Source: Escherichia coli
GTDB lineage: Bacteria > Pseudomonadota > Gammaproteobacteria > Enterobacterales > Enterobacteriaceae
Strand: one strand, 5' to 3'
Assembly (NCBI RefSeq): GCF_001677475.2
Contig: NZ_CP015229.1
DNA: 64,000 nt
The position numbers and the translations under genes were made by a program. The first letter of the stretch is position 1; each line of letters starts with the position of its first letter. The notes under the pieces are model-generated. The model saw only the letters and a list, made by a program, of their open reading frames with translations. It was not told where the DNA came from and ran no database searches. Below are positions 32,278 through 47,566 of this stretch, piece after piece.

Positions 32278-33027
32278 TCAGATGGTCGAAATCAGCATTC
32301 TGTGACCTTCGATATCCAGACGGCGAAAATTCATCCCATAGGCCTGCGCCAGATTTGGCGGCGTGAGCACCTCTTCTCTGCGTCCACTGGCCAGCATTTT
32401 TCCACCTTTTAGCAACCACGCCCGATGCGCATGACGCAATGTGTGGTTGAGATCGTGACTGCTCATCACAATCGCCAGTCCTTGCTGACACAGCGCGCTC
32501 AGAATTTTGTCTAACGCACTTTGTTGCGCAACATCAAGACTGTTCATCGGCTCATCAAGAAGCAGCAATTGGCCTGCGGGATTGGCTTGTGGTGTGATTT
32601 GCAGCACCACCGCAGCAAGACGTACGCGTTGCCATTCACCGCCGGAAAGTTGATTGGTGCTACGTCCGAGTTTGTCATCAAGAGCCAGCGCCCCTGCGAC
32701 ATCATTCAGTAGTTCGGTACGCGTTTTATCGTGCTGATGCAATGTCAGGTAGTGCCAGACCGGCATTGCAAACGGCGGCGTCTGCTGTTGTGAAAGATAG
32801 GCGCGATGCAGCGCGAGTTTTGTTGCGGACCATGCTTCCAGTGGTTGCCCCGCGAACTGAATGCTTCCCTTACCGCTGGTCATTCCGGCCATTCGCGCCA
32901 GTAAGGTACTCTTACCCGCGCCATTCGGCCCCACCAGGTGCAGGATCTCCCCAGCCCGAACCTCGCCAGAAAGCGGCCCCAGGCGGGTAGATTCCGCAAC
33001 ATCCTGTAACTGCATCACAATAGACAT
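32278..33027 (-). CDS. btuD: vitamin B12 ABC transporter ATPase
   Basis: 249-aa ORF; Walker [10 protein letters not shown], signature LSGGEWQR. Confidence 0.95.
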
Positions 33028-33578
33028 TATTTTGCCAACGCCAGTTTAATGCTTTCCATCACAATGGGATCTTCCGGCGTCATATCCGGGGAAAAACGCT
33101 GGATGACCAATCCGTCCCTGCCAACTAAAAATTTCTCAAAATTCCATAAAATATCATCAGGGTACAGCGGTGCACGACCTTTGCTGACCATACGGGCATA
33201 GAATCCGCTCTCTTCCGGCGCGACTGCGGTCGGCGCTGCGGCAATCAATTTTTGATACAGCGGATGGCGTCCTTCGCCATTAACTTCAATCTTACTGAAC
33301 ATCGGAAACGTCACCCCCCATGTGGTGGTACAGTAAGTTTTAATCTCTTCATCGCTGCCCGGTTCTTGTTCCAGAAACTGGTTGCACGGGAATCCCAGCA
33401 CCACAAAACCACGATCGGCCCAGGCTTTCTGAATATTCTCCAACTGCTCATATTGCGGCGTTAAGCCACACTTTGAGGCGACATTGACAATCAACAGCAC
33501 ATTACCAGCGTACTTCTCCAGCGTGGTCACTTCACCGTCGATATCTTTCACTACGGTCGTCAGAATGGAATCTTGCAT
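33027..33578 (-). CDS. btuE: glutathione-peroxidase-like protein
   Basis: 183-aa ORF; GPx-like active site region; between btuC and btuD. Confidence 0.9.
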
Positions 33579-33640
33579 CGTTTCTCCTGGGTGTGGTCAG
33601 TAAAAATCTTAGCTTTTAATCATAGACCGTCTTTTTGCGG

Positions 33641-34621
33641 CTAACGTCCTGCTTTTAACAATAACCAGATAAACACCGGCGCACCTAACGTTGCGGTGAC
33701 CACGCCAATAGGCAGCTCTGCGGCAGCTAATGCCAGGCGCGCTACAACATCGGCCAGCAGCAATGCGCTCGCCCCTGCCAGCGCGCAGCCTGGAAGTAAT
33801 ACGCGATGATCGGTTAAACCACACAGCCGGAGAATATGTGGGATCACCAGACCAATAAAGCCGATAGCACCCGCCAGCGCCACACTGACGCCAACCATCC
33901 AGCCGGTCACTGCGACCAACACATTGCGCCAGAACCACAGGGGTAAACCCAGTTGCCGCGCCGAGATCTCGCCAAGTGCTAACATATTCATCGGCCTGGA
34001 CTGACAACAGATCCACAACAACACGGGGATCAATGCCAGCATCAGCCAGCTTTGCCGCCAGTCTACGCCGCCAAAACCGCCCATCATCCAGTACATCAGC
34101 TGACGCAAATCAACAGAGGTGGAAAAGTAGATAGCCCACGTCATTAGTGCGCTACAGATAATCCCTAATGCAACGCCAGCCAGCAATAACCGACTGGTCG
34201 AAAGATGACGACGGGCGAAACGTAAGAGTATTAAAGTGATGATAAGCGCGCCAGCAATCGCACACAGCCCCAGCGCCCAGTTGGGGAGTTGCCCTTGCCC
34301 AAGCAATACCGCGGCGATAAGCCCCACGCCTGCGCCATTAGAGACGCCAAGTAGTCCAGGTTCTGCCAGAGGATTTTCAAACAACGCCTGCATTACTGCG
34401 CCGGATATAGCCAGCGCCGCACCAACCAGCAATACAGCCAGCGTACGTGGCAGGCGAATTTGCCAGACGAACAGTTCGCCACGAGGAGTAAACCAGTCAC
34501 CTGGCGAGATCCATTGTTCACCGGCGCAAAGGCTTAAGAGAAGCGCCAGCAGCATCAAAACTGACAGGCATAATAACCAGCGAATATTTTGTCGCTGTTG
34601 TTGGCGGGCAAGTGTCAGCAT
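33641..34621 (-). CDS. btuC: vitamin B12 ABC transporter permease
   Basis: 326-aa multi-TM ORF; FecCD-type permease; synteny. Confidence 0.95.
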
Positions 34622-34813: not shown

Positions 34814-35344
34814 TCATCCAACAAATTTAGCAACAAATACAGCAACCGCCGCCGTGAAAATGGTTGTGCATACTGGCACAATAATGCCACTCCAACGCCA
34901 CTTCGTATTATCATCAACCTTGTCAAACCGCCGATTCATCTCATCCATAATCTTGTCAAAGCGTTTATCCATCGCTTCGGTAAGCTCACCCTTCAGGCTG
35001 TTAATGTCTGATTTGAGCTGCTCTTTCAGGTTAGCTGTATCAGATTTAAGCTCACCTTTCAGATTCGCAATATCGCATTTAAGATCACCTTTCAGATTCG
35101 CAATGTCTGCTTTGAGCTCACCTTTAACCTCACCAACATCGGCTTTGGTTGAGAGGTTTGTAGTGCGTTCAGCAAGCGTCGCAAGGTCGTTTCTTGTTAG
35201 CGATAAATCACCTTCGAGCCGCTCAATTCGCCTTTCAAGTTTATCTGACATTCCGCCTCCACTATCACCGCCTCCCCCACCGAAAGAGTTGCCAATGTCC
35301 TCACGAATAAGGGTTATGCCATGCTCACTTTTAGCATATGCCAC
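34814..35344 (-). CDS. tail-anchored coiled-coil membrane protein with tandem 11-residue repeats (unknown function)
   Basis: 176-aa ORF; Gly-rich N-terminus, repeats DIANLKGDLKC/DIANLKGELKS/DTANLKEQLKS/DINSLKGELTE, single C-terminal TM helix; abuts upstream ORF. Confidence 0.6.
   Translation of the reverse strand: MAYAKSEHGITLIREDIGNSFGGGGGDSGGGMSDKLERRIERLEGDLSLTRNDLATLAERTTNLSTKADVGEVKGELKADIANLKGDLKCDIANLKGELKSDTANLKEQLKSDINSLKGELTEAMDKRFDKIMDEMNRRFDKVDDNTKWRWSGIIVPVCTTIFTAAVAVFVAKFVG
34993..35128. repeat. tandem ~33-bp direct repeats inside ORF 34814..35344
   Basis: Repeated units of the form CACCTTTCAGATTCGCAATnTCnnnTTTnAGnT visible in sequence (4 copies, degenerate). Confidence 0.7.
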
Positions 35345-35758
35345 TCAGATTCCCTCCCAAACTATATATCCTTTGTCTCTTGCCCAACAAACAACTGTGT
35401 GGGCTGTATATGTGGATGTGAAGCCGCAATAAGAACATGACACTTCATACCGAGTATTGTAGATGTTAATGGGCTCGTTCTCCTTGTGTATGGGAGTGAC
35501 ATATTCCCAATCATTTGAATCATCATAATCATCAAGTTCAGGGTCTGTGCCGTGAACAACCGTATGTGGAATAAACAAATCTAGGCGCCCACACGAGAGA
35601 CAAGAGGTTCTGGCTCCTCTATCTTTAAGGAATTGAATAAATAATTTGGGCGAAATCTGTTGCAGAACCTGCAAATGCCCACGTTCATTATCATTAAGAG
35701 ACCTGTCTGCATATGGAAAATCATCAAATTTAAGAGGCTTCATATAAGGCATCTCCAA
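35345..35758 (-). CDS. zinc-ribbon-containing protein of unknown function
   Basis: 137-aa ORF with CLSCG...CSYCG Cys pairs; overlaps int 3' end and abuts the next ORF (operon-like); alternative start 35743. Confidence 0.5.
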   Translation of the reverse strand: MEMPYMKPLKFDDFPYADRSLNDNERGHLQVLQQISPKLFIQFLKDRGARTSCLSCGRLDLFIPHTVVHGTDPELDDYDDSNDWEYVTPIHKENEPINIYNTRYEVSCSYCGFTSTYTAHTVVCWARDKGYIVWEGI

Positions 35759-36722
35759 GGGGATTAAATCTCACCGCATCCTGCAGGTAATCCGGCGCAA
35801 GATGGGCATAAATCATCGTTGTCTGAATCTTTGCGTGCCCCAGAATTTTCTGGAGCGTCAGAATATTGCCGCCGTTCATCATGAAATGACTGGCGAAGGT
35901 GTGGCGCAGCGCATGAACAGCCTGGCCGTCAGGAACATCAGGTGCGACCGTTTTGATGACATCGCGAACCAATGGATAATCCAGCGTCGGAAACACCAGT
36001 TTCCCGCCCCGTTTTTTGATCTTTTCAAACAGGCTTTCAGAAATAGGAACGGTACGGTTTTTGCTGTTCTTCGTTTTTGAAAAAGTGATTCGACAATGAA
36101 GAACACGGCGCTGCTCCAGTGCCGCTACCTCGCCCCATCGCGCCCCGGTCGACAGAAGGATTTCGACAGCCAGCCGTTCATCGGGATTTTCAGCCAGTGC
36201 ATCCAGCAACTGAACACATTCAGACTTACTCAGATATCCCATTTCGCGCTCGTTAACCTTCATTCCTTTAAGGCCTTGAACGGGGTTATCGTTAAGAAAA
36301 TGGCCGGATGAGATGAGTGCGGTAAACATCGCGCTTAACGCCCCAATCTCTCGATTTATGGTGCTGGGCTGTATCCCCTGCTCTATCCTGGACACACGTA
36401 GCTCGGTGAGCATCGTTGTATTAAGTTTATGCACGCACGGGTCATCCATTGCCTCACTCAAGCGCAGCAATTTAAGGCGCGTGTTATGCCCTGACTTCAT
36501 TAGCTGGCCGTGGTATTTCCACCACAAGTCAATAAGCACCGACAGCGGACGGCGATCAATGGAGTTTCCTTTCCACTCATTGTTATGCTGTTGCGCCAGC
36601 ACCCACCGCTCATATAAAACTGCATCCGATTTCGTTTTAAATTTTTTGCGAATGCGTTTGCCTTTACGCCCCTCCGGGCGCATGTCAAGAAGATACCCTC
36701 CCGGAATTGATTTTATGCTCAT
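35730..36722 (-). CDS. tyrosine integrase, P2 Int-like
   Basis: ORF 35730..36872; start set at internal Met (MSIKSIPGGYLLDMRPEGRKGKRIRKKF) by resemblance to P2 Int N-terminus; C-terminal catalytic region TGARWGE...HALRHTFASHFMMNGG...LGH...IYAH. Confidence 0.9.
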   Translation of the reverse strand: MSIKSIPGGYLLDMRPEGRKGKRIRKKFKTKSDAVLYERWVLAQQHNNEWKGNSIDRRPLSVLIDLWWKYHGQLMKSGHNTRLKLLRLSEAMDDPCVHKLNTTMLTELRVSRIEQGIQPSTINREIGALSAMFTALISSGHFLNDNPVQGLKGMKVNEREMGYLSKSECVQLLDALAENPDERLAVEILLSTGARWGEVAALEQRRVLHCRITFSKTKNSKNRTVPISESLFEKIKKRGGKLVFPTLDYPLVRDVIKTVAPDVPDGQAVHALRHTFASHFMMNGGNILTLQKILGHAKIQTTMIYAHLAPDYLQDAVRFNPLGDALYEAS

Positions 36723-36771
36723 TCGTGAAACCCCAGCGTTACAAGACCACCATGCCCCCAGCGCTCCATGA

Positions 36772-37083
36772 TTAGCCGGGCTGTGTGCCAGTCTTGCGGG
36801 GTTTTTGAGAAGGCGATGTGCTTTTTGGCCCATCAGGGGAGAGAGACGGACTGATCTGCCCAGCAGCCTCATTTGTTTCGTTACTCATCAACCACGTGGT
36901 GTATTTTTTAAAGTTCGGATGCATTGTGATTTTCAGTAAAACCTCCGTCCCCACACCTCTAATACCAGTCTCATATTGCTTAACTGTACCAACCGCAATA
37001 CCTATTGAATCCGCGAACTTTGCCTGGCTAAGTCCCTCAGATTCTCGAATTGCTTTTAGCTTCTTTGATATCTCTATTGACAT
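36772..37083 (-). CDS. P2 C-type immunity repressor (HTH, no peptidase domain)
   Basis: ORF 36772..37155; start set at MSIEISKK (ATG 37081-37083, AGG RBS); HTH plus motif KYTTWLMSNE...GQISPSL resembling P2 C. Confidence 0.75.
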   Translation of the reverse strand: MSIEISKKLKAIRESEGLSQAKFADSIGIAVGTVKQYETGIRGVGTEVLLKITMHPNFKKYTTWLMSNETNEAAGQISPSLSPDGPKSTSPSQKPRKTGTQPG

Positions 37084-37178
37084 GGTGTGCACCTGAATAC
37101 TATATTGGTTATCAGTTGAGTACCACTTGACGCCACAAAAAGCCACAAATAGCACCAGATTGAATAGGTTATCACATC
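37084..37178. promoter_or_regulatory. divergent early promoter/operator region (repressor vs cox-like operon)
   Basis: Intergenic between divergent C-like and cox-like genes; GGTTATCA repeated at 37107..37114 and 37167..37174; TTGACG -35-like element. Confidence 0.5.
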
Positions 37179-37457
37179 ATGGCAAAAGTCCTGAACACAT
37201 ACGAACAAGCGGATTTTGAGCGTTTGGCGGCGTTCTACCCATACCGTGATGAGCATGGGTTACCTGTGCTTGAAGAAAGCCTGGAAGATTACGCGAAACG
37301 CACGAATCAAAGCATTCTTGCGGTAAGAAGGCAGGCCGACAGATCAGTAATCCCCGTCACCCAAGAAGGAAGAAACACAAAACGCAAAGTAAACCTTTTC
37401 GCAATATTCCTGAAAACCATCAGGAGCGCAGAGAAATACGTGCAGATGACAAAATAA
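37179..37457 (+). CDS. Cox/Apl-position early protein (putative excisionase/transcriptional switch)
   Basis: 92-aa ORF, first gene of rightward early operon opposite the repressor; function assigned by position only. Confidence 0.4.
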   Translation: MAKVLNTYEQADFERLAAFYPYRDEHGLPVLEESLEDYAKRTNQSILAVRRQADRSVIPVTQEGRNTKRKVNLFAIFLKTIRSAEKYVQMTK

Positions 37458-37471
37458 CGAGGTGTAATTTT

Positions 37472-37810
37472 ATGCTGAAGCAACGCCATAATTTTCGTAC
37501 CGGAACGGAACGCCACGCTAACCGTTTCGCTACCAGTGCATCACGTAGTAACTCCCGCTACAGCCTGAGCGAAACACACGCTACACCTGATGGCCATCCC
37601 GTAAAACAAATTGGTGAACACACCTGGCTGATTGAGAAAGCTGGAATCGTGGTTCACAGATGCCAACGCAACCCATTTACCGGAAACCGCATTTTTGCTC
37701 TGAGCAACGGCGACACTCAGTTTGGACAGGATTTCACATTGTACGAAGCACTTCGCACGGTTGATCGTCTGCTTCGCGGGCAAAGTTTTATTAAACAGAC
37801 TGATTTATAA
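37472..37810 (+). CDS. phage early protein, unknown function
   Basis: 112-aa ORF in early operon, same strand, short intergenic spacing. Confidence 0.5.
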   Translation: MLKQRHNFRTGTERHANRFATSASRSNSRYSLSETHATPDGHPVKQIGEHTWLIEKAGIVVHRCQRNPFTGNRIFALSNGDTQFGQDFTLYEALRTVDRLLRGQSFIKQTDL

Positions 37811-39753: not shown

Positions 39754-40075
39754 GAAACCAGAACATGCACACACAAAAAAACCGCTTGCCATGCCGCAAT
39801 CAGTCAGGTTACATTTCCGCTGCACCTCATAAAACGGGTGCCGGGTTTCGCAGCCTGCTAACTACACAAGCGCACAACCGCGCCAGCGGTTTTTTTGTGC
39901 GTACTGTATTGCCACGTTTTTTTCGCGCCAGAATTATGGCGGGGCGTACGGGGCCGACTTCGGTCGGGCCGGGTTCTTGTGTAGCCGGTACTGCGAACCT
40001 CGTACGTCTCGCCACCCACAGTTTCGCAGCTCTGGATGGTAAGTTTTCACAACTTACTACACAAGAGGCCACACC

Positions 40076-40306
40076 ATGGCAAACCGCAAACAACAGCGCG
40101 CATACGCTGCGCGTCGTCACATCCAGACTGAAATCAACCGCAGACTTTCCCGCGCATTCCGCGTCACTAAAATCATGCACATCAATATGCTGCATGAGCG
40201 TAGCTGCGAACTTTCAAACCTCTATTCATCCGCTGTTTTCAGCTATCTGGCGGATGATCTGCGCGAGCTTCAGCAGCTCATCCAGCAGCAAAACAAACTC
40301 CATTAA
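40076..40306 (+). CDS. phage early protein, unknown function
   Basis: 76-aa ORF with AGAGG RBS; basic. Confidence 0.4.
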   Translation: MANRKQQRAYAARRHIQTEINRRLSRAFRVTKIMHINMLHERSCELSNLYSSAVFSYLADDLRELQQLIQQQNKLH

Positions 40307-40378: not shown

Positions 40379-40768
40379 ATGATTGACGCTCATGACTTCA
40401 CAAGATGGGTGCGCACACAGGACACCCGTCTGGCTCCCGTTCTTCAGGGATTATTTGATCTTTACATCCGTGGTCGTGACAACAGAGCACGCACTACAAA
40501 ACCGGAGAATGCGGACACCCTTTATTTCACAGTAGACGACTGCTACCGCGTGGACTTCACACCACACGGGCTGGCGTTGCACTGCCTGACACCACACGGC
40601 GAATCACTGCTGGCGTATTACGACTCCCCGGCCTCCGTATTTGCGGCAATGCTGGCGCATCGCACTGCTGGCGGGTGTGCCTCGCTGAGTGAATACACCG
40701 CTGAATTTAACCGCCTTTCCGCCATCTTCTCGCAGGAGTGGCAGCGCGTGACGGGATACCAGCCATGA
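40379..40768 (+). CDS. phage early protein, unknown function
   Basis: 129-aa ORF; stop overlaps gpA start (ATGA). Confidence 0.5.
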   Translation: MIDAHDFTRWVRTQDTRLAPVLQGLFDLYIRGRDNRARTTKPENADTLYFTVDDCYRVDFTPHGLALHCLTPHGESLLAYYDSPASVFAAMLAHRTAGGCASLSEYTAEFNRLSAIFSQEWQRVTGYQP

Positions 40769-43605
40769 GTGAGTTTGCATGGAGCTGGAATGAACCACGG
40801 CCAGCCATTGATCCGGCCAGATTTACGGAGCGCAGGCAGGAAACTGAAACCGACCTGCAACGCGCCATCCGTTACTACCTTGAGGCAGACAAAAGGGCAC
40901 AGGAAGAACAGGAAGCGAAGGAAGAAGCCTTTTTCGCACAATCCACCGTGGGTAAAAAACTCATGGCATCCCTTGAGGAAGCCGGACAGCGTGAAAAGCT
41001 GGCACAGAGCATCATCAGTAAGCGCCGGGCAACAGAACAAGACACGGTAGCCCGTGCCTTTGCCACACTAAAGGCACTACCTGTTTATCTGCGTGAACCA
41101 CTGAGCCGCCACCTCTCTTTCCTGCGCAAAAAACAGGAAGCCGATCGCCGGAAAGGCAAAAAGAGCTGGCAGGCGGAACGCTATGCACGCGGAACCCTGC
41201 GCAAAATATTCGAACGTCTGGACCGCACCGACAGCCGCTGGCTGACACCGGGTTATCGCGCCCTTGCCGGACGCGAACGCCTGGACGATTTGCTTTACCT
41301 GCCGCAGCTCAACAAACACCAGATACAGACGCTGGCCACCATGACAGCGGCGATGTTCAGCAGCACCTTCGAAAAACTCTGCGATGGCTTTGGCGCGACT
41401 GATGGCGAGCTGACCATGGATGTAACGCTGAAGGCGTATCAGATGCTGGCCCGCATGGCGTTACACCTGCACGCCATGCCTCCGCATTATGACGTACTGA
41501 CAACAGACAAAGACCGGAGGAACGAACCAGACACAGAACTGCTGCCGGGCGCAATCCTTCGCCTGACCTGTGCGGAATGGTGGAAACGCAAACTGTGGCT
41601 GTTACGTTGCGAGTGGCGGGAAGAACAACTCCGAGCCGCCTGTCTGGTTTCCAGAAAAACATCGCCCTATCTGAGCCAGGACGCGTTAAGCGAGTTTCGC
41701 GCACAGCGCGAGAAAACACGCGATTTCCTGAAAAGTTTCATGCTGGAAAATGAAGACGGGTTCACGATTGATCTCGAGACGGTGTATTACGCGGGAGTAA
41801 GTAACCCGGTTCACCGTAAGGCAGAAATGATGGCCACCATGAAGGGACTGGAACTTCTGGCCGAAGCCCGTGGCGACAGAGCGGTGTTTCTGACCGTCAC
41901 CTGCCCGTCAAAATACCACGCAACAACGGAGAACGGTCATCCGAACCCCAAATGGAACGGGGCCACCATGCGCGACTCCAGCGATTACCTGGTTAACACG
42001 TTTTTTGCGGCGGTCCGCAAAAAACTGAACCGCGACGGCCTGCGCTGGTATGGCATCCGCACGGTGGAGCCTCACCATGACGGCACTGTGCACTGGCATA
42101 TGATGGTCTTTGCACATCCGGACGAGATTGAAACCATCGTGTCCCACGTCTGCGATATTGCCATTCAGGAGGACCGCCACGAGCTGGGCGATGACATAAC
42201 TCCGCGTTTTAAGGCGGAGTATGTCGACGGCTCAAAAGGCACACCAACCAGCTACATCGCCACCTACATCGGAAAGAACTTGGACAGCCGCGCCGTGGAT
42301 GGCATCGACCCGAAAACGGGCAAGCCACGCGTTGACCACGAAACCGGAAAATCAATGGCCGAGAGCGTGGAGCGCGCCATCGGCTGGGCGCGCCTTCACC
42401 GGGTCCGTCAGTTCCAGTTCTTTGGCATCCCCTCCCGTCAGGTGTGGCGTGAACTGCGCCGCCTTGCCAGCCAGATGGCACGCAATCCGGAAGGCCCGCA
42501 ACGGCTGAAAGATGATGCAATGGATGCGGTACTCGCTGCCGCCGATGCCGGGTGTTTTGCCACCTACATTGAAAAACAGGGTGGCGTGCTTGTTCCACGC
42601 AAGGACTACCTGATTCGCACCGCCTACGACCTCGCAGATGAGCTGAACGATTACGGCGAACAGAGCGTACAGATTTACGGGATCTGGTCACCACTCATCG
42701 GGGAATCCTCCCGTGTGTGCACGCATCCGGATAACTGGAAGTTGGTAAGACGTAAACCAGAACCGGAAGACAACGCCCACGAAAATGGTTTTGACCTTCA
42801 GGGCGGCCCTGCCGCCCCTTGGACTCGTGGCAATAACTGTCCCCGTGTACAGGAAACGGACAATAACGGGACAGAACTGCCGGAAGAACGGCCAGCACCG
42901 TGGCCGCAGCTCCCTGACGGCGTTGAAGTGAACGAATGGATGCGCTCACTGAAACAGCACGAACGCCGGGCGCTGATGCGTTCGCTTCGTGACAAACAGG
43001 CAAAAAACAGCAGTGATGAAATGCAGAGCTGGACACAGAGCCGCAAACAGCAGCGGCCTTTGCCTGATAACCACGAATTACTCGCTAAAGAATGGCGGGA
43101 GTCTGCTGAATCTCTCGGCCTGCATATCGGTGAACAACAGATGCAGCACCTGTTACGGGGCGGCAGCCTGTACGTTGACGGCAGCATCATTGCACCGCAG
43201 GGATTTGAAATTGTACGCAAACCGGATACCCGCCCGGACAGCCGAATCACGCAGCTCTGGCAGCGCCTGAGCCGTAATCATGGCGTAAGCAGCACGGAGA
43301 TCCGCCATAACCCGGTCGCCAGCTATCTGGCACAGCTGGGGGCATCAGACCCTGAAGTCGCCGCACGCCTGGCATCCACACTTCAGCAGGACCAGAACAC
43401 CATGAAAACACCCGTTACCGTGCTTTCTGACATGCTGCGCGCCATCCGCGACGCAGAGCACGCACAGAGAATCAGTGAAACCACTGAACGCGCCCGCCGC
43501 AAAGCAGACCTGCTGCGGGGTGGCCTGACCAGTGGAAACAAAAAACAGACAGAAACGGGACTCATGAATCCCGTAAATGAGCAAAAAACGCGCAGCGATA
43601 TATGA
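40765..43605 (+). CDS. rolling-circle replication initiator, P2 gpA-like, with long C-terminal extension
   Basis: ORF 40738..43605; start set at ATG 40765 (MSEFAWSW); HWHMMVF and ATYIGKN motifs typical of gpA-family nicking proteins; 946 aa. Confidence 0.8.
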   Translation: MSEFAWSWNEPRPAIDPARFTERRQETETDLQRAIRYYLEADKRAQEEQEAKEEAFFAQSTVGKKLMASLEEAGQREKLAQSIISKRRATEQDTVARAFATLKALPVYLREPLSRHLSFLRKKQEADRRKGKKSWQAERYARGTLRKIFERLDRTDSRWLTPGYRALAGRERLDDLLYLPQLNKHQIQTLATMTAAMFSSTFEKLCDGFGATDGELTMDVTLKAYQMLARMALHLHAMPPHYDVLTTDKDRRNEPDTELLPGAILRLTCAEWWKRKLWLLRCEWREEQLRAACLVSRKTSPYLSQDALSEFRAQREKTRDFLKSFMLENEDGFTIDLETVYYAGVSNPVHRKAEMMATMKGLELLAEARGDRAVFLTVTCPSKYHATTENGHPNPKWNGATMRDSSDYLVNTFFAAVRKKLNRDGLRWYGIRTVEPHHDGTVHWHMMVFAHPDEIETIVSHVCDIAIQEDRHELGDDITPRFKAEYVDGSKGTPTSYIATYIGKNLDSRAVDGIDPKTGKPRVDHETGKSMAESVERAIGWARLHRVRQFQFFGIPSRQVWRELRRLASQMARNPEGPQRLKDDAMDAVLAAADAGCFATYIEKQGGVLVPRKDYLIRTAYDLADELNDYGEQSVQIYGIWSPLIGESSRVCTHPDNWKLVRRKPEPEDNAHENGFDLQGGPAAPWTRGNNCPRVQETDNNGTELPEERPAPWPQLPDGVEVNEWMRSLKQHERRALMRSLRDKQAKNSSDEMQSWTQSRKQQRPLPDNHELLAKEWRESAESLGLHIGEQQMQHLLRGGSLYVDGSIIAPQGFEIVRKPDTRPDSRITQLWQRLSRNHGVSSTEIRHNPVASYLAQLGASDPEVAARLASTLQQDQNTMKTPVTVLSDMLRAIRDAEHAQRISETTERARRKADLLRGGLTSGNKKQTETGLMNPVNEQKTRSDI

Positions 43606-43650
43606 AGCGCGCACAAAACAGGCAAAAACGGGATTTTAGAATCCCGTAAA
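43554..43650. promoter_or_regulatory. twin palindromic operator-like sites flanking the putative parM promoter
   Basis: AACGGGACTCATGAATCCCGTAAA at 43554..43577 and AACGGGATTTTAGAATCCCGTAAA at 43627..43650, each an inverted repeat ACGGGA-N8-TCCCGT; TATAT between them. Confidence 0.5.
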
Positions 43651-43681
43651 CGATTAATTAATCAACATAAGGAAAAGCGAC

Positions 43682-44641
43682 ATGAAAATTTGTATCGACG
43701 ACGGCTCCACCAACATCAAGCTGGCATGGACTGAGAACGGCGAACGCCGCAACGCCATCAGCCCGAACAGCTTCAAGTCGGAATGGTCTGCGCCGTTCGG
43801 TGGCACGCAGCCCGCGAACTACATGCTTGATGGCGTGCGCTATGGTTTTGATCCGGTCAGCGATCGCTTTGTCCAGACGACCGACACGCAATACCAGTAC
43901 AGCGATGTGAATGTCATTGCCATTCATCACGCGCTGGTCAAATCAGGCATCACGCCACAGGAGGTGGATGTGGTTGTCACCCTGCCACTGAGCGAGTATT
44001 TCGACACAAACGCACAGCCGGACATGGCCAACATCAACCGCAAAAAAGCGAACGTTATGCGCCCGGTGGAGTACCAGAACGGCGAAGCATTCACTATCCG
44101 TAACGTGCGGGTTATGCCTGAATCCATTCCGGCTGGCTTTAAGGCACTGGCTGACATGAGTCCGTTTGAATCCCTGCTGATTGTAGATTTGGGCGGAACC
44201 ACGCTGGATGTGGCAAAGGTTCAGGGGCAACTGGCAGGTATCAGCCAGGTGTTTTGCGATCCACACGTAGGCGTTTCTCTGATGGCCGATGCCGTACTGT
44301 CGGTGATGGCCACTAACGGTATGCGCACCAGTCACCACATCGCCAATACCATTATCGAACATCGCCATAATGAAGCCTGGCTGCGCCAGCACATCCACAA
44401 TGACGCGCATTACGCCAGCCTGATGGAGGTTATTCGTGAAAAGGAAGAAACACTGAAACAACGCGTGATCCGCGCGCTGGCGGGTTTTTCGGGTTACGGG
44501 CGGGTGATGGTTGTCGGTGGAGGGGCGGAGATTGTGGCACCCGCTATCCGCGAAGCCTGCGGAGTTCATGCGACTTTCATCGCGGACGGGGTGCCACAGT
44601 TTGCTCTGGTTAATGGGCTGTACGCAATGGACAAGGAGTAA
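43682..44641 (+). CDS. actin-like ATPase, ParM/StbA family
   Basis: 319-aa ORF; motifs DDGSTNIKL, SPNSFK, YSDVNVIAIHHAL, MPESIPAG, DLGGTTLD, VVGGGAEI align with plasmid R1 ParM as I recall it. Confidence 0.85.
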   Translation: MKICIDDGSTNIKLAWTENGERRNAISPNSFKSEWSAPFGGTQPANYMLDGVRYGFDPVSDRFVQTTDTQYQYSDVNVIAIHHALVKSGITPQEVDVVVTLPLSEYFDTNAQPDMANINRKKANVMRPVEYQNGEAFTIRNVRVMPESIPAGFKALADMSPFESLLIVDLGGTTLDVAKVQGQLAGISQVFCDPHVGVSLMADAVLSVMATNGMRTSHHIANTIIEHRHNEAWLRQHIHNDAHYASLMEVIREKEETLKQRVIRALAGFSGYGRVMVVGGGAEIVAPAIREACGVHATFIADGVPQFALVNGLYAMDKE

Positions 44642-44645
44642 ACCA

Positions 44646-44957
44646 ATGACGACACCAACCAGACGGATAAGTTTCTATCTGAAGCCTGCGGCCGTCAAGA
44701 ACGAAAGCGAAGCATGCGCCTGGCTGGACAGCCTTACACCAGAAGCCCGCAAAAGCGGCCAACGCGTGGCTTTTCTGGCCGGGCTGGCACTTCTGAAAAT
44801 GAATCCGGCAGAGGCTTACCGACTGGCTGCATGGGCTGACGATGAGGCGTTATCAGTGACACAAACCAGGACAGAATGCCCCGCGTCACAGCCAGTATCA
44901 ACCGCACAGATAACCAGTCAGATGGCCGGAAATATCCGGGCGTTATTTCCCGAATAA
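44646..44957 (+). CDS. ParR-like centromere-binding/repressor protein
   Basis: ATG 44646 with GGAG RBS, 103 aa; RRISFYLKP...AWLDSLTPEARKSGQRVAFLAGLAL resembles R1 ParR N-terminal RHH region; immediately downstream of parM-like gene. Confidence 0.7.
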   Translation: MTTPTRRISFYLKPAAVKNESEACAWLDSLTPEARKSGQRVAFLAGLALLKMNPAEAYRLAAWADDEALSVTQTRTECPASQPVSTAQITSQMAGNIRALFPE

Positions 44958-44962
44958 CACAA

Positions 44963-44990
44963 CATCAGGGCGCATCCGCCCTGATGACTT
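44963..44990 (+). terminator. putative terminator after parR-like gene
   Basis: 10-bp stem CATCAGGGCG/CGCCCTGATG with 4-nt loop, followed by short T-rich stretch. Confidence 0.4.
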
Positions 44991-45020
44991 TAATCCGGGA
45001 ACATAAACAAGGGGGACACA

Positions 45021-45356
45021 ATGCAACACATTGACAGAGAAAAAGCGCAGCGACTGATTGAGCGAATGGAAGCGCTGGCGAAAGAAGAAAATGTCAACAT
45101 CCAAAAAATAGCTGAATGTGGCCAGATAGTTCTTCGTCGTGAAAAAGACATCAAGCAACTGATGTCTGGCGAAATCAGCAAAACATGGACTTCAGGCAAG
45201 AAGACGATTTATTGCAGCTTCTGCAATAAATCCCAGCACGAAGTCATAAAGGTGATTGCCGGACCGTCTGTTTACATCTGCAATGAGTGCGTGGATTTGT
45301 GCAATGAAATTATCAGAAGAGAAGTGACAGACCATGAAGAAAAAACGCATGAATGA
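45021..45356 (+). CDS. ClpX-type C4 zinc-binding-domain protein (novel N-terminal helical region fused to ClpX-like ZBD)
   Basis: 111-aa ORF, GGGGGA RBS; residues [38 protein letters not shown] closely match E. coli ClpX N-domain (about 32 of 39 residues by my recollection); no AAA+ module. Confidence 0.8.
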
Positions 45357-45943
45357 CGAATTTGACGGCTTTTAATTTTATCGGGGCACACTGTCTCCCC
45401 CCGCACGAGGAAAACACGATGAAAAAATACGAATACATGCTAATGAAAGAAGCACTGCGGGCTGGTCTGGCTCCCTGTCCTGTATCCGTAGAAGCTGTTG
45501 TTGGGAACACGATTTTCCGAACGCTGCGAAATCGCGTATCCGTGAAGATGATTCACCAACCACCCAAATCTACCAGCATGATCTATCTGCCGCTGCCCGA
45601 GGCTATCAAACTTATGCGTTCGCTGAAATTTGCGATTTGGATGCAGACACAACTCAACAAAGCGGTGCAAAACACCTTCGTTAAGAAACTGATGCCGGAG
45701 CTTGCTGCCAGATGTGCAAAATGTACCAGACCCGCACTTCAATTTGATCTGTCATTGATTCAACAAGCTACGGAGGCAGAACTGTACCGCCTGTCACCTC
45801 TCCATGATGTTCACACGGAAGCCTCAGAAATGTTCCGGCTCATGTTTCAATTTAATTTTGCCGTTCGACGCACACGCGTTCAGGTCAATCGCATGATGCA
45901 GGCGCAGGAAGAGCTGACGCAACACAAAGGAGGCAACCAGTGA
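45353..45943 (+). CDS. hypothetical protein, translationally coupled to ZBD gene
   Basis: ATG 45353 overlaps upstream stop (ATGA); alternative start ATG 45416 with GAGGAA RBS; no recognisable motif. Confidence 0.55.
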
Positions 45944-46464
45944 GCAAGATTGACTATCAGGCATTACGCGAACGCTATTCACCTGCGCCAGTACCGAAAT
46001 GCCCTATTTGCGGCGAGGAAATGTCAATTCAGCGAATATCTGGAGCACAGGTTGTTTATGCCTGCTCCGGTTATGGTGATGATGGAGATTTCAAAATTGG
46101 TCGAACTCTTGCCGACGAACATTATGAAAAATCGCGCGTAACAGTGTTGGATGTCGGGGATCCTGAAGTATTGGCGCTACTTGATTGGCTGGAAACTAAA
46201 GACAACCGAATCGCTGAACTGGAAAAAATCGCCACTGACTATGCACTTAAATTCCAGAAAGCACAGGACGCATTAAAGCATGCCGCTTTGCTGCATAGCC
46301 GGACGGCGCAACAAACAAATAATTTTGCAGTATCGCTTCCGGACATAAGCGAATATTTCATTAATGACGTATTTCAGCCCTTGCGATACGAGCGGGATGT
46401 TGAAAGAGCCATCATAAAGGCTGGCGGAAAAGCATTGTGGCAGGAGAAACACGACGACAGATAA
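45940..46464 (+). CDS. hypothetical protein with N-terminal Cys-rich (zinc-ribbon-like) segment
   Basis: GTG start overlapping upstream stop (GTGA) with AGGAGG RBS; CPICGEE...YACSG; 174 aa. Confidence 0.55.
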   Translation: MSKIDYQALRERYSPAPVPKCPICGEEMSIQRISGAQVVYACSGYGDDGDFKIGRTLADEHYEKSRVTVLDVGDPEVLALLDWLETKDNRIAELEKIATDYALKFQKAQDALKHAALLHSRTAQQTNNFAVSLPDISEYFINDVFQPLRYERDVERAIIKAGGKALWQEKHDDR

Positions 46465-46516
46465 AAATAACACCTGATCTCCCTCAAACCAGGGCGATAA
46501 TCGCGCATCGCCCTGC

Positions 46517-46543
46517 TGCACAATAGTGCACAAATTTGCACAA
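46517..46543. repeat. three TGCACAA direct repeats at exact 10-bp phasing
   Basis: TGCACAA at 46517, 46527 and 46537; helical-turn periodicity suggests protein binding on one DNA face. Confidence 0.6.
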
Positions 46544-46614
46544 TTTTTTTGAACGACTTTTTGCCCTTCCGGCCCGCGTGGCGGCTGGATCCGTCAAGGA
46601 TCCGTGCGTGCACA

Positions 46615-46630
46615 AAAAAACGCGTTTTTT
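46615..46630. other. perfect palindrome AAAAAACGCGTTTTTT inside phage non-coding block
   Basis: Seen directly; preceded by GGATCCGT direct repeats at 46587 and 46598 and followed by G-rich segment. Confidence 0.6.
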
Positions 46631-46914
46631 CTGCGCGCAGGTGACGGGGGAACAGCCCGCGTTTCAGGGGGTAAATAGCGTTCCCTTAACGATGTCGCAG
46701 CGACACGACAGAATGGCCGTATCGCTCACGCTGAGCGTGAAAAATACGTGAGGGATTCTGATTTGATGGGGTGAAAGGTAAGGCCGTCAAAATCGCACTG
46801 AGGCGGCGAGAACATGCAGTCAGCGCGGTGGGATTGTGTAGAGTCTGGCCGTCGATGATAGCGATAAGTCGGAAGATGTCGTGAAATTATCTGATTGATA
46901 CGGGAGCTGGAGAG

Positions 46915-46941
46915 CCGGGGCATAAATTTTTTATGCCCCGG
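46915..46941. other. perfect 12-bp-stem hairpin CCGGGGCATAAA-ttt-TTTATGCCCCGG
   Basis: Seen directly; no flanking U tract on either strand so not a classical intrinsic terminator. Confidence 0.6.
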
Positions 46942-47041
46942 CGAAGCAGCAGACAAGCGAAGCGCGTCAGTGATGCGGCACCTTGCCGACCACACTTCAT
47001 AAGTGCAAAATACGAGCAAAGAAATCAATGGAGGCTGTTTT

Positions 47042-47566
47042 ATGGTCATTAATTACAAGCAGTTACGAGAAAAACGAGAGCAGGTAAAGGAAAGTTTTCG
47101 CCGCAATGAAGATCTGACCCCGCTTGTACACCTTGCCCAGGGAATTGTTGATGCTTATGAAATCTCTCTGGAGCTGCCATCACAGACATGGACGGATAGC
47201 GACGGTAATCGCCAGCATTACGTTTCATGCGGACTGGAAACAACTGAAGGGTTTCGCAGAATGCCTTTATCTCAGATTCCTGCCGCTACCCCCAAAGCAA
47301 GGGGCGGCAATGATGAGCGAAAACTGATTTTCAGCATTGAGACAGTGGTTGACGACACACCTGGCGAAGTCGCGTTCGTGCATACTCCTCTTTCGATCGC
47401 AATGTATAACGATGAAATACAGGTTCGCGTTAATAATAATATCGTGCCACTTAAAGAAGGTAATTCACCATACACCACCGTTTGTGAAGCCATTCAATAT
47501 TACGTTCTCTCTGAAATTGATAATCTCAAGCCTGACGGCACCCAGAAAATGGTTCAACTCTGGTAA
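47042..47566 (+). CDS. hypothetical protein (orphan gene between non-coding block and portal gene)
   Basis: ATG 47042 with GGAGG RBS (ORF track 47003..47566); followed by strong terminator. Confidence 0.55.
   Translation: MVINYKQLREKREQVKESFRRNEDLTPLVHLAQGIVDAYEISLELPSQTWTDSDGNRQHYVSCGLETTEGFRRMPLSQIPAATPKARGGNDERKLIFSIETVVDDTPGEVAFVHTPLSIAMYNDEIQVRVNNNIVPLKEGNSPYTTVCEAIQYYVLSEIDNLKPDGTQKMVQLW

Follow-up and report, generated by a model that had tools for sequence, protein, structure and literature searches.

Why should integrating phages, present in about 24% of complete Escherichia coli genomes, keep an intact plasmid-segregation machine under selection? The question is raised by a stretch of 64,000 nucleotides from the E. 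coli contig NZ_CP015229.1 (the whole stretch is called the window in the following), which contains a chromosomally integrated prophage with the genes parM and parR directly downstream of its replication gene gpA. Together with repeats located upstream of parM, these genes almost certainly make up a complete and intact partition cassette of type II, the type of plasmid R1 (ParMRC). Comparison of its relatives indicates that the cassette has been kept under selection for a long time in P88-like and related phages of the P2 family. By analogy with two other integrating elements we propose that it acts on extrachromosomal phage circles after infection or induction, and we put the probability of this reading at roughly 0.55.

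Identity of the partition proteins

The gene parM (43682..44641, plus strand) encodes an actin-like ATPase of 319 amino acids and was identified by Pfam, PHROG and PDB matches. Residues 1-157 match the Pfam family StbA_N (2.5e-82), residues 159-316 match the Pfam ParM C-terminal domain (1.9e-67), and PHROG 691, 'partition protein', matches the open reading frame (ORF) with 3.7e-90. ParM of plasmid R1 (PDB 1mwk) was matched over residues 2-316 with E=9.5e-93, and the full-length alignment of the two proteins gives 47% identity; structure 4A62 was also among the PDB matches of this search. The nucleotide-binding residues are intact. The phosphate 1 motif DDGST (D6, D7, G8, S9, T10), the catalytic E147, located within MPESIPAG, the phosphate 2 motif DLGGTT (residues 169-174, with D169, G171, G172, T173 and T174) and the adenosine motif GGGA (G279-G281 and A282) are all invariant. 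Invariance was judged on an alignment with R1 ParM, StbA of phage D6 and four further phage homologues. The homology searches place the protein in the ParM/StbA family and in no other actin or Hsp70 family.

The gene parR (44646..44957, plus strand) begins 5 nt past the stop of parM and encodes an adaptor of 103 amino acids. ParR matches the Pfam family Plasmid_stab_B (PF10784; StbB/ParR family) with 2.2e-24 and PHROG 2515, 'partition protein', with 1.5e-57. A profile built from ParR and its relatives, R1 and D6 sequences included, matched the solved ribbon-helix-helix protein ParR of pB171 (2JD3) with 2.5e-14. The N-terminal domain is of the ribbon-helix-helix type, with the strand TRRISFYLKP.

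The variability of both proteins was followed in IMG/VR, where a scan with the ParM alignment was made and the best 80 loci were kept; all of them are P88-like, and they represent a population sample with no new lineages. ParM is 98-99% identical in these loci, whereas ParR occurs in 48 variants. The variation is distributed very unevenly along the protein: there is hardly any change in residues 1-18, which contain the strand, a small number of allelic classes can be told apart in residues 19-65, and the linker (about residues 66-95) is hypervariable and partly unalignable. The last eight residues are again conserved (N-I-R/Q-x-L/F-F-P-E; N-I-R-x-L-F-P-E in the window). A (K/R)xN..LFPx motif also ends the ParR proteins of related prophages in Hafnia, Plesiomonas, Serratia and Enterobacter, and it aligns with the C-terminus of R1 ParR, KKNAMKLIN. 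In R1, ParR inserts its C-terminal peptide into ParM.

Nucleotide similarity among P88-like genomes is interrupted about 55 nt into parR, and parR is thus the left edge of a recombining cargo region that extends from gpA to the portal gene. This position probably explains much of the ParR diversity. Directly 3' of parR a GC-rich hairpin with a 10-bp stem (44963..44986) was found, which is a possible weak or bidirectional terminator. The segment common to all P88-like phages ends at this hairpin, with phage matches stopping at about 44950-44983.

The arrangement resembles that of R1 and R100 (StbA/StbB), in which the order is likewise centromere, parM, parR. The likeness extends to the proteins, since the ParM proteins share their Pfam domains and ATP motifs over the full length and the ParR proteins share their family and a homologous C-terminal tail. 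In contrast to R1, the cassette is carried by an integrating tailed phage and directly follows a rolling-circle replication gene; furthermore, its ParR has 103 amino acids and a hypervariable linker, compared to 116 amino acids in R1 ParR.

A preliminary description of this stretch had reported a ParM homologue with an adjacent ParR-like gene, directly after the replication gene of an integrated P2-family prophage and preceded by paired palindromes. All of these statements were confirmed: gpA ends at 43605 on the same strand, the palindromes are present (see below), and the integrated state and the family of the prophage are borne out by its btu flank, its tyrosine integrase and its 97-98% nucleotide identity to phage P88 over most of the region.

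Conservation and relatives in other genera

In pairwise comparisons of seven parM copies, the ratio of non-synonymous to synonymous substitution rates (dN/dS, Nei-Gojobori) was about 0.05-0.3, based on small counts of 3-30 synonymous and 0-7 non-synonymous differences per pair. Among the 80 IMG/VR loci, ParM is intact in 79 and ParR is mostly intact. The genes can even outlast other phage functions. In a degraded P2-like prophage of the O157:H7 strain DEC4E, an IS3 insertion sequence replaces the portal-to-capsid genes while parM and parR are intact, with arm mutations in the second of the two palindromes; another prophage copy with a frameshifted gpA still has intact parM and parR.

The nearest ParM proteins outside E. 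coli come from Hafnia and Plesiomonas (62% identity), Serratia (58%) and Enterobacter ludwigii (53-54%). All of them are located in P2-like prophages downstream of a Phage_GPA replication gene, with one additional ORF between gpA and parM in Hafnia and two in Enterobacter. In each of these four genera a PF10784 ParR gene follows parM, and variable genes and a portal/terminase pair are found further downstream. The five phage ParM proteins form a group of their own in a neighbour-joining tree, separate from R1, D6 and other enterobacterial homologues; as the tree has no bootstrap, the support from it is weak. The overall pattern is consistent with a single ancient acquisition, after which the cassette was inherited vertically within a branch of the P2 family.

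R1-type ParM-ParR pairs were also observed outside of phages. One is located beside TraG_N and TraU genes on a Dickeya chromosome (CM001975.1), in what is probably an integrative and conjugative element (ICE), showing that the theme is broader. Others have genes for a small recombinase and a PLD-family nuclease as neighbours and were found in E. coli and Yersinia, on contigs of about 56-60 kb that resemble plasmids.

The region upstream of parM

The parC-like region (43539..43653) spans the stop codon of gpA. A repeat search revealed two 42-nt direct repeat units here (43539-43580 and 43612-43653), which are 81% identical and lie 73 bp apart from start to start. Inside each unit sits one perfect 20-bp palindrome with 8-bp arms and a 4-nt spacer, of the form ACGGGAyT-N4-ArTCCCGT. 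Dyad 1, ACGGGACT-CATG-AATCCCGT (43555..43574), lies within the 3' end of the gpA coding sequence; dyad 2, ACGGGATT-TTAG-AATCCCGT (43628..43647), has its GGG 52 nt before the ATG of parM. Even with up to three mismatches allowed, the pattern has only these two matches in the 64-kb window. An AT-rich ATTAATTAATCAA motif, possibly a -10 element, and an AAGGA ribosome-binding site follow (43653..43677, plus strand), and TTAATCAA of the possible -10 motif is retained in the upstream regions of Hafnia and Plesiomonas. From these features we infer a putative promoter at the AT-rich motif, at which the palindromes would act as operators, as the preliminary description had suggested. A terminator scan listed the palindromes as minus-strand terminators; this assignment was rejected since the stems are lost in Hafnia and Plesiomonas and no minus-strand gene ends there.

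Exactly two dyads of the form GGG-N10-CCC are found upstream of parM in E. coli, Hafnia and Plesiomonas, one 125-131 nt and the other 52-59 nt ahead of the ATG, and their spacing is 73, 73 and 72 bp, respectively, or about seven helical turns. The background frequency of this pattern in the three loci is 0.16-0.41 per kb. In Hafnia and Plesiomonas, GGG-N10-CCC is all that is kept of the palindromes, and the inner bases differ between the genera. The upstream dyad of Hafnia is located in a different ORF than that of E. coli, thus the conservation of the dyads is not a by-product of gpA coding. Within E. coli both palindromes are kept in all 72 alignable P88-like loci, with substitutions mostly in the centre and in the outermost bases; since the whole 140-bp upstream region is well conserved, this within-species evidence is weak on its own.

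Serratia and Enterobacter do not have these dyads and instead contain one large interrupted inverted repeat, GGGAAC.A.ATAGAAAAAT ... ATTTTTCT.TTTC. The N-terminal strand of ParR differs as well, being NRKISFYL in these two genera and TRR(I/V)SFYL in the lineages with dyads. In ribbon-helix-helix proteins it is the N-terminal strand that reads the bases, and the strand differs where the repeats differ, suggesting that protein and site change together.

Occurrence and plasmid carriage

The 1.4-kb cassette matches 1307 of the 5426 complete E. coli genomes, including O157:H7, O104:H4 and ST131 strains, and most of the copies are 95-99% identical. In total, 1455 places were found, 1453 of which are chromosomal and two of which are on plasmids. 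As an object the cassette is not new: it is already catalogued and is a close, annotated relative of R1 ParMRC. The RefSeq record of phage P88 annotates the two genes as 'plasmid segregation protein ParM' and 'partition protein', and the GenBank record of D6 notes its StbA as 'similar to phage P88 StbA protein'. The preliminary description had presented the module as unexpected in an integrated prophage. The module is real, but the surprise is weakened by its annotation as ParM or partition protein in P88 and in more than 1300 RefSeq genomes. The ParM homologue is not listed in the supplements of one O157 proteome paper and one transcriptome paper.

P88-like phages could be facultative plasmid prophages: in cells that lack the attachment site, for example, or as defective phages, they would persist as low-copy plasmids, maintained by ParMRC. 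A point in favour comes from PLSDB, in which seven records match the cassette. One of them, NZ_CP148288.1 from a cat E. coli isolate, is circular, has 34,461 bp and contains a whole P88-like genome including the integrase. In this record two reading frames make up the portal gene, a split that may be genuine or may stem from a sequencing error, and its gene table lacks the tape-measure gene. Either the record shows an excised (replicative) form that contains sequencing errors, or it is a defective phage that persists as an episome. In addition, the Plesiomonas relative is located on a 32-kb contig that ends 142 bp from the integrase gene, and D6, a P1-like phage-plasmid, uses a StbA that is 47.5% identical to the prophage ParM, together with a StbB. 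However, D6 is maintained as a plasmid, while the copy in the window is integrated and the E. coli places are nearly all chromosomal, so that the P88-like phages do not qualify as phage-plasmids. The other PLSDB records do not help, since five are very large (228 kb to 1.4 Mb) and a Shigella record of 26.7 kb, rejected as an episome, is a linear, unplaced contig rich in IS1 copies. In every lineage examined, either an integrase is present or the contig is large and chromosomal, and no plasmid-type replicon was seen, gpA being a lytic rolling-circle initiator. With chromosomal places dominating and a single circular phage record, stable plasmid carriage is at most rare, and we regard this explanation for the cassette as unlikely.

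A proposed function on free phage circles

The cassette has the parts that a functional ParMRC would need, namely a phased pair of centromere-like sites, an adaptor whose DNA-reading strand and motor-binding tail are both intact, and an ATPase with an intact active site. Since the phage is almost always found integrated, and an integrated copy segregates with the chromosome, the substrate of the cassette is most likely a free phage circle. The same is suggested by its position, because the cassette adjoins gpA and has the same orientation, and the terminator scan detected no plus-strand terminator between gpA and parM. In P2-type phages, gpA-driven rolling-circle replication yields monomeric circles. 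We propose that ParR dimers bind the two phased dyads at the end of gpA, just upstream of parM, where they probably also repress a weak promoter. The conserved C-terminal tail of the DNA-bound ParR would capture the ends of ATP-ParM filaments, and the growing filament would then push parC-carrying DNA molecules apart. These molecules would most likely be free circular phage genomes copied by gpA, which in this way might be spread or retained in a growing or filamenting cell. The benefit could be better replication and yield, or it could be a better chance that, before integration, each daughter cell obtains a copy; either lytic help or pre-integration inheritance may apply. Two ideas of the preliminary description, that the module supports an episomal stage or positions replicating phage DNA, are both still plausible.

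Two precedents show that integrating elements use partition of free circles; both serve as functional analogues here and not as sequence families. The first is the type II locus srpMRC of the SXT/R391 ICEs (Carraro et al. 2015; PMC4489591), which contains four 13-bp repeats and is expressed only when the ICE is activated. It cuts the loss of the excised, relaxase-replicated form of R391 and stabilises a test plasmid. Like the prophage cassette, it is a type II partition locus in an integrated element with a rolling-circle-copied excised circle and few centromere repeats. In contrast to the phage proteins, which are close relatives of R1 ParMR, SrpM and SrpR are only distantly related to R1 ParMR, and SXT/R391 elements are conjugative and not viral, with excision leaving the cell alive.

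The second precedent is AlpAC of the integrated prophage CGP3 of Corynebacterium glutamicum (Donovan et al. 2015; PMC4446434). AlpAC is induced early and connects circular CGP3 DNA with actin-like filaments, and phage replication is efficient only if it is present. The system (AlpAC/alpS; PMC4446434, PMC5539076) is similar to the prophage cassette in that an integrated prophage encodes an actin-like ATPase together with an adaptor, which in CGP3 is co-transcribed and binds upstream of the operon. It differs in its actinobacterial host, in the family of the actin-like protein and in the gene order, with the adaptor gene coming first.

Several observations weigh against a partition function on phage circles. 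There are only two ParR-type sites upstream of parM. The parC of R1 has ten iterons, in two blocks of five 11-bp direct iterons, in place of the two phased 20-bp palindromes of the prophage, and D6 has several TCTCA direct repeats upstream of StbA; with two sites the complex may be mainly an autoregulatory operator. The consensus scan of the region between gpA and parM found no sigma-70 promoter there. A relaxed scan gave weak candidates only (8-of-12), the best of which is TTTAGA-16-ATTAAT, with a -35 element that falls into the middle of dyad 2; Hafnia has a candidate at a comparable position, Plesiomonas does not. Next to two main clusters of intact ParM with about 5600 members, there are clusters of truncated ParM with 229 amino acids (649 members) and 188 amino acids (555 members). 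Excision of P2-type phages normally commits the cell to lysis, so that the logic of preventing loss, which holds for an ICE, transfers only partly. To our knowledge, no such cassette is carried by the type phages P2 and 186. Finally, no functional study of the P88-type cassette was found in the literature searched.

Possible roles in the lysogen

The cassette might instead serve the host or the resident prophage, for example by acting on the chromosomal locus, as a 'fitness factor' or by interference with incoming related phages or plasmids that share its centromere. It adjoins the variable cargo between gpA and the portal gene, the position at which P2 carries tin and old, and parMR is intact both in the degraded O157:H7 prophage and in the copy with the frameshifted gpA. 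The phiSM paper (PMC6456863) lists the cassette as a fitness gene, without giving data. However, the PADLOC defence models gave no match at E<=0.01 for ParM, ParR and the four downstream ORFs, so that no gene from gpA to the portal gene is matched and a defence system was rejected. No PLSDB plasmid has this parC except for copies of the prophage itself. Moreover, the cassette is, unlike true cargo, conserved in position and content across genera. A lysogen-side role is therefore quite unlikely. A role in the adjacent operon, which the preliminary description had considered, has no support either, as the downstream genes are variable cargo.

That the cassette is a functionless relic of a plasmid-borne ancestor, another suggestion of that description, or of a recent plasmid-phage recombination is very improbable: truncated ParM in some lineages and only two remaining repeats would fit, but purifying selection with a dN/dS well below 1, the intactness of ParM and mostly of ParR, ATP motifs and a ParR tail that are invariant in four other genera (ParM identity 53-62%) with the same gene order, and the conserved dyad architecture speak against it.

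The carrier prophage and its neighbouring genes

The carrier is a P88-like prophage (Peduoviridae, Xuanwuvirus) integrated into the chromosome next to btuC. To its left BtuD, BtuE and BtuC are encoded (32281-34621), all above the NCBIfam curated cut-offs; its right end lies beyond the window. The tyrosine integrase gene (35733-36722, minus strand) is followed by a gene for a helix-turn-helix repressor. The end with integrase, repressor and cox (35730-37490) has no nucleotide similarity to P88. Similarity begins at 37493, and from there to the end of the window the identity to Escherichia phage P88 is 90-98%, with 98.4% in the cassette region and 97-98% in the structural genes. Judging from this pattern, the immunity and integration module has evidently been swapped relative to the type phage P88. 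Two ORFs of 176 and 137 amino acids are located between btuC and the integrase gene (34814-35758, minus strand) and have no informative family match. The 176-residue protein contains a coiled coil and a C-terminal hydrophobic segment, and the 137-residue protein is cysteine-rich.

The P2-type genes for gpA, portal and terminase were identified in the prophage. gpA (40765..43605, plus strand) is a replication endonuclease that matches PHROG 91, 'nicking at origin of replication', with 2.2e-275, and its relatives are annotated as replication endonuclease with the Pfam domain Phage_GPA. The start was set at Met10 of an ORF opening at 40738, matching the relatives of 946 amino acids. Further upstream (39822-40019, plus strand), Rfam detects the Hfq-binding RNA isrK (66.5 bits) beside a C4 antisense RNA (83.2 bits), both just upstream of a 76-residue 'derepression protein' ORF (40076-40306). 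This region looks like an antisense-controlled antirepressor module in the style of P1 and P7, here in a P2-like phage.

Downstream of parR, an ORF at 45021-45356 (plus strand) encodes a protein of 111 amino acids with a ClpX-type zinc-binding domain as its C-terminal half (NCBIfam clpX N-terminus 2e-13; PHROG 6797). Gp19 of P88 is the same protein and is mis-annotated as 'carboxylate--amine ligase'. It could be a decoy or an adaptor for ClpX. The variable cargo up to the portal gene (45353-47566, plus strand) contains three uncharacterised ORFs; a topoisomerase-type zinc ribbon (PHROG 368) is present in one, and another belongs to PHROG 5091. In other P88-like prophages this position is occupied by very different genes, among them HicAB, a KAP NTPase and DUF4760.

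Implications

Taken one step further, the proposed action on free circles leads to a bolder statement, namely that very common integrating E. coli phages make use in their life cycle of a functional actin spindle of the R1 type, which organises or distributes gpA-replicated circles during lytic growth or the establishment of lysogeny, perhaps with a transient, plasmid-like carrier state. We put this forward tentatively and at less than even odds. The role question already has analogues in one ICE and one actinobacterial prophage. If the cassette does act on excised or incoming circles, as srpMRC and AlpAC do, active partition of transient forms would extend to a major family of tailed phages, and a genetically easy model in E. 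coli would be at hand, as P88 is inducible and plates on laboratory strains. Such an actin spindle would give phages of the best-studied bacterium a cytoskeletal function whose mechanism differs from that of plasmid maintenance. And if a transient carrier state exists, the P88-like phages would be conditional phage-plasmids.

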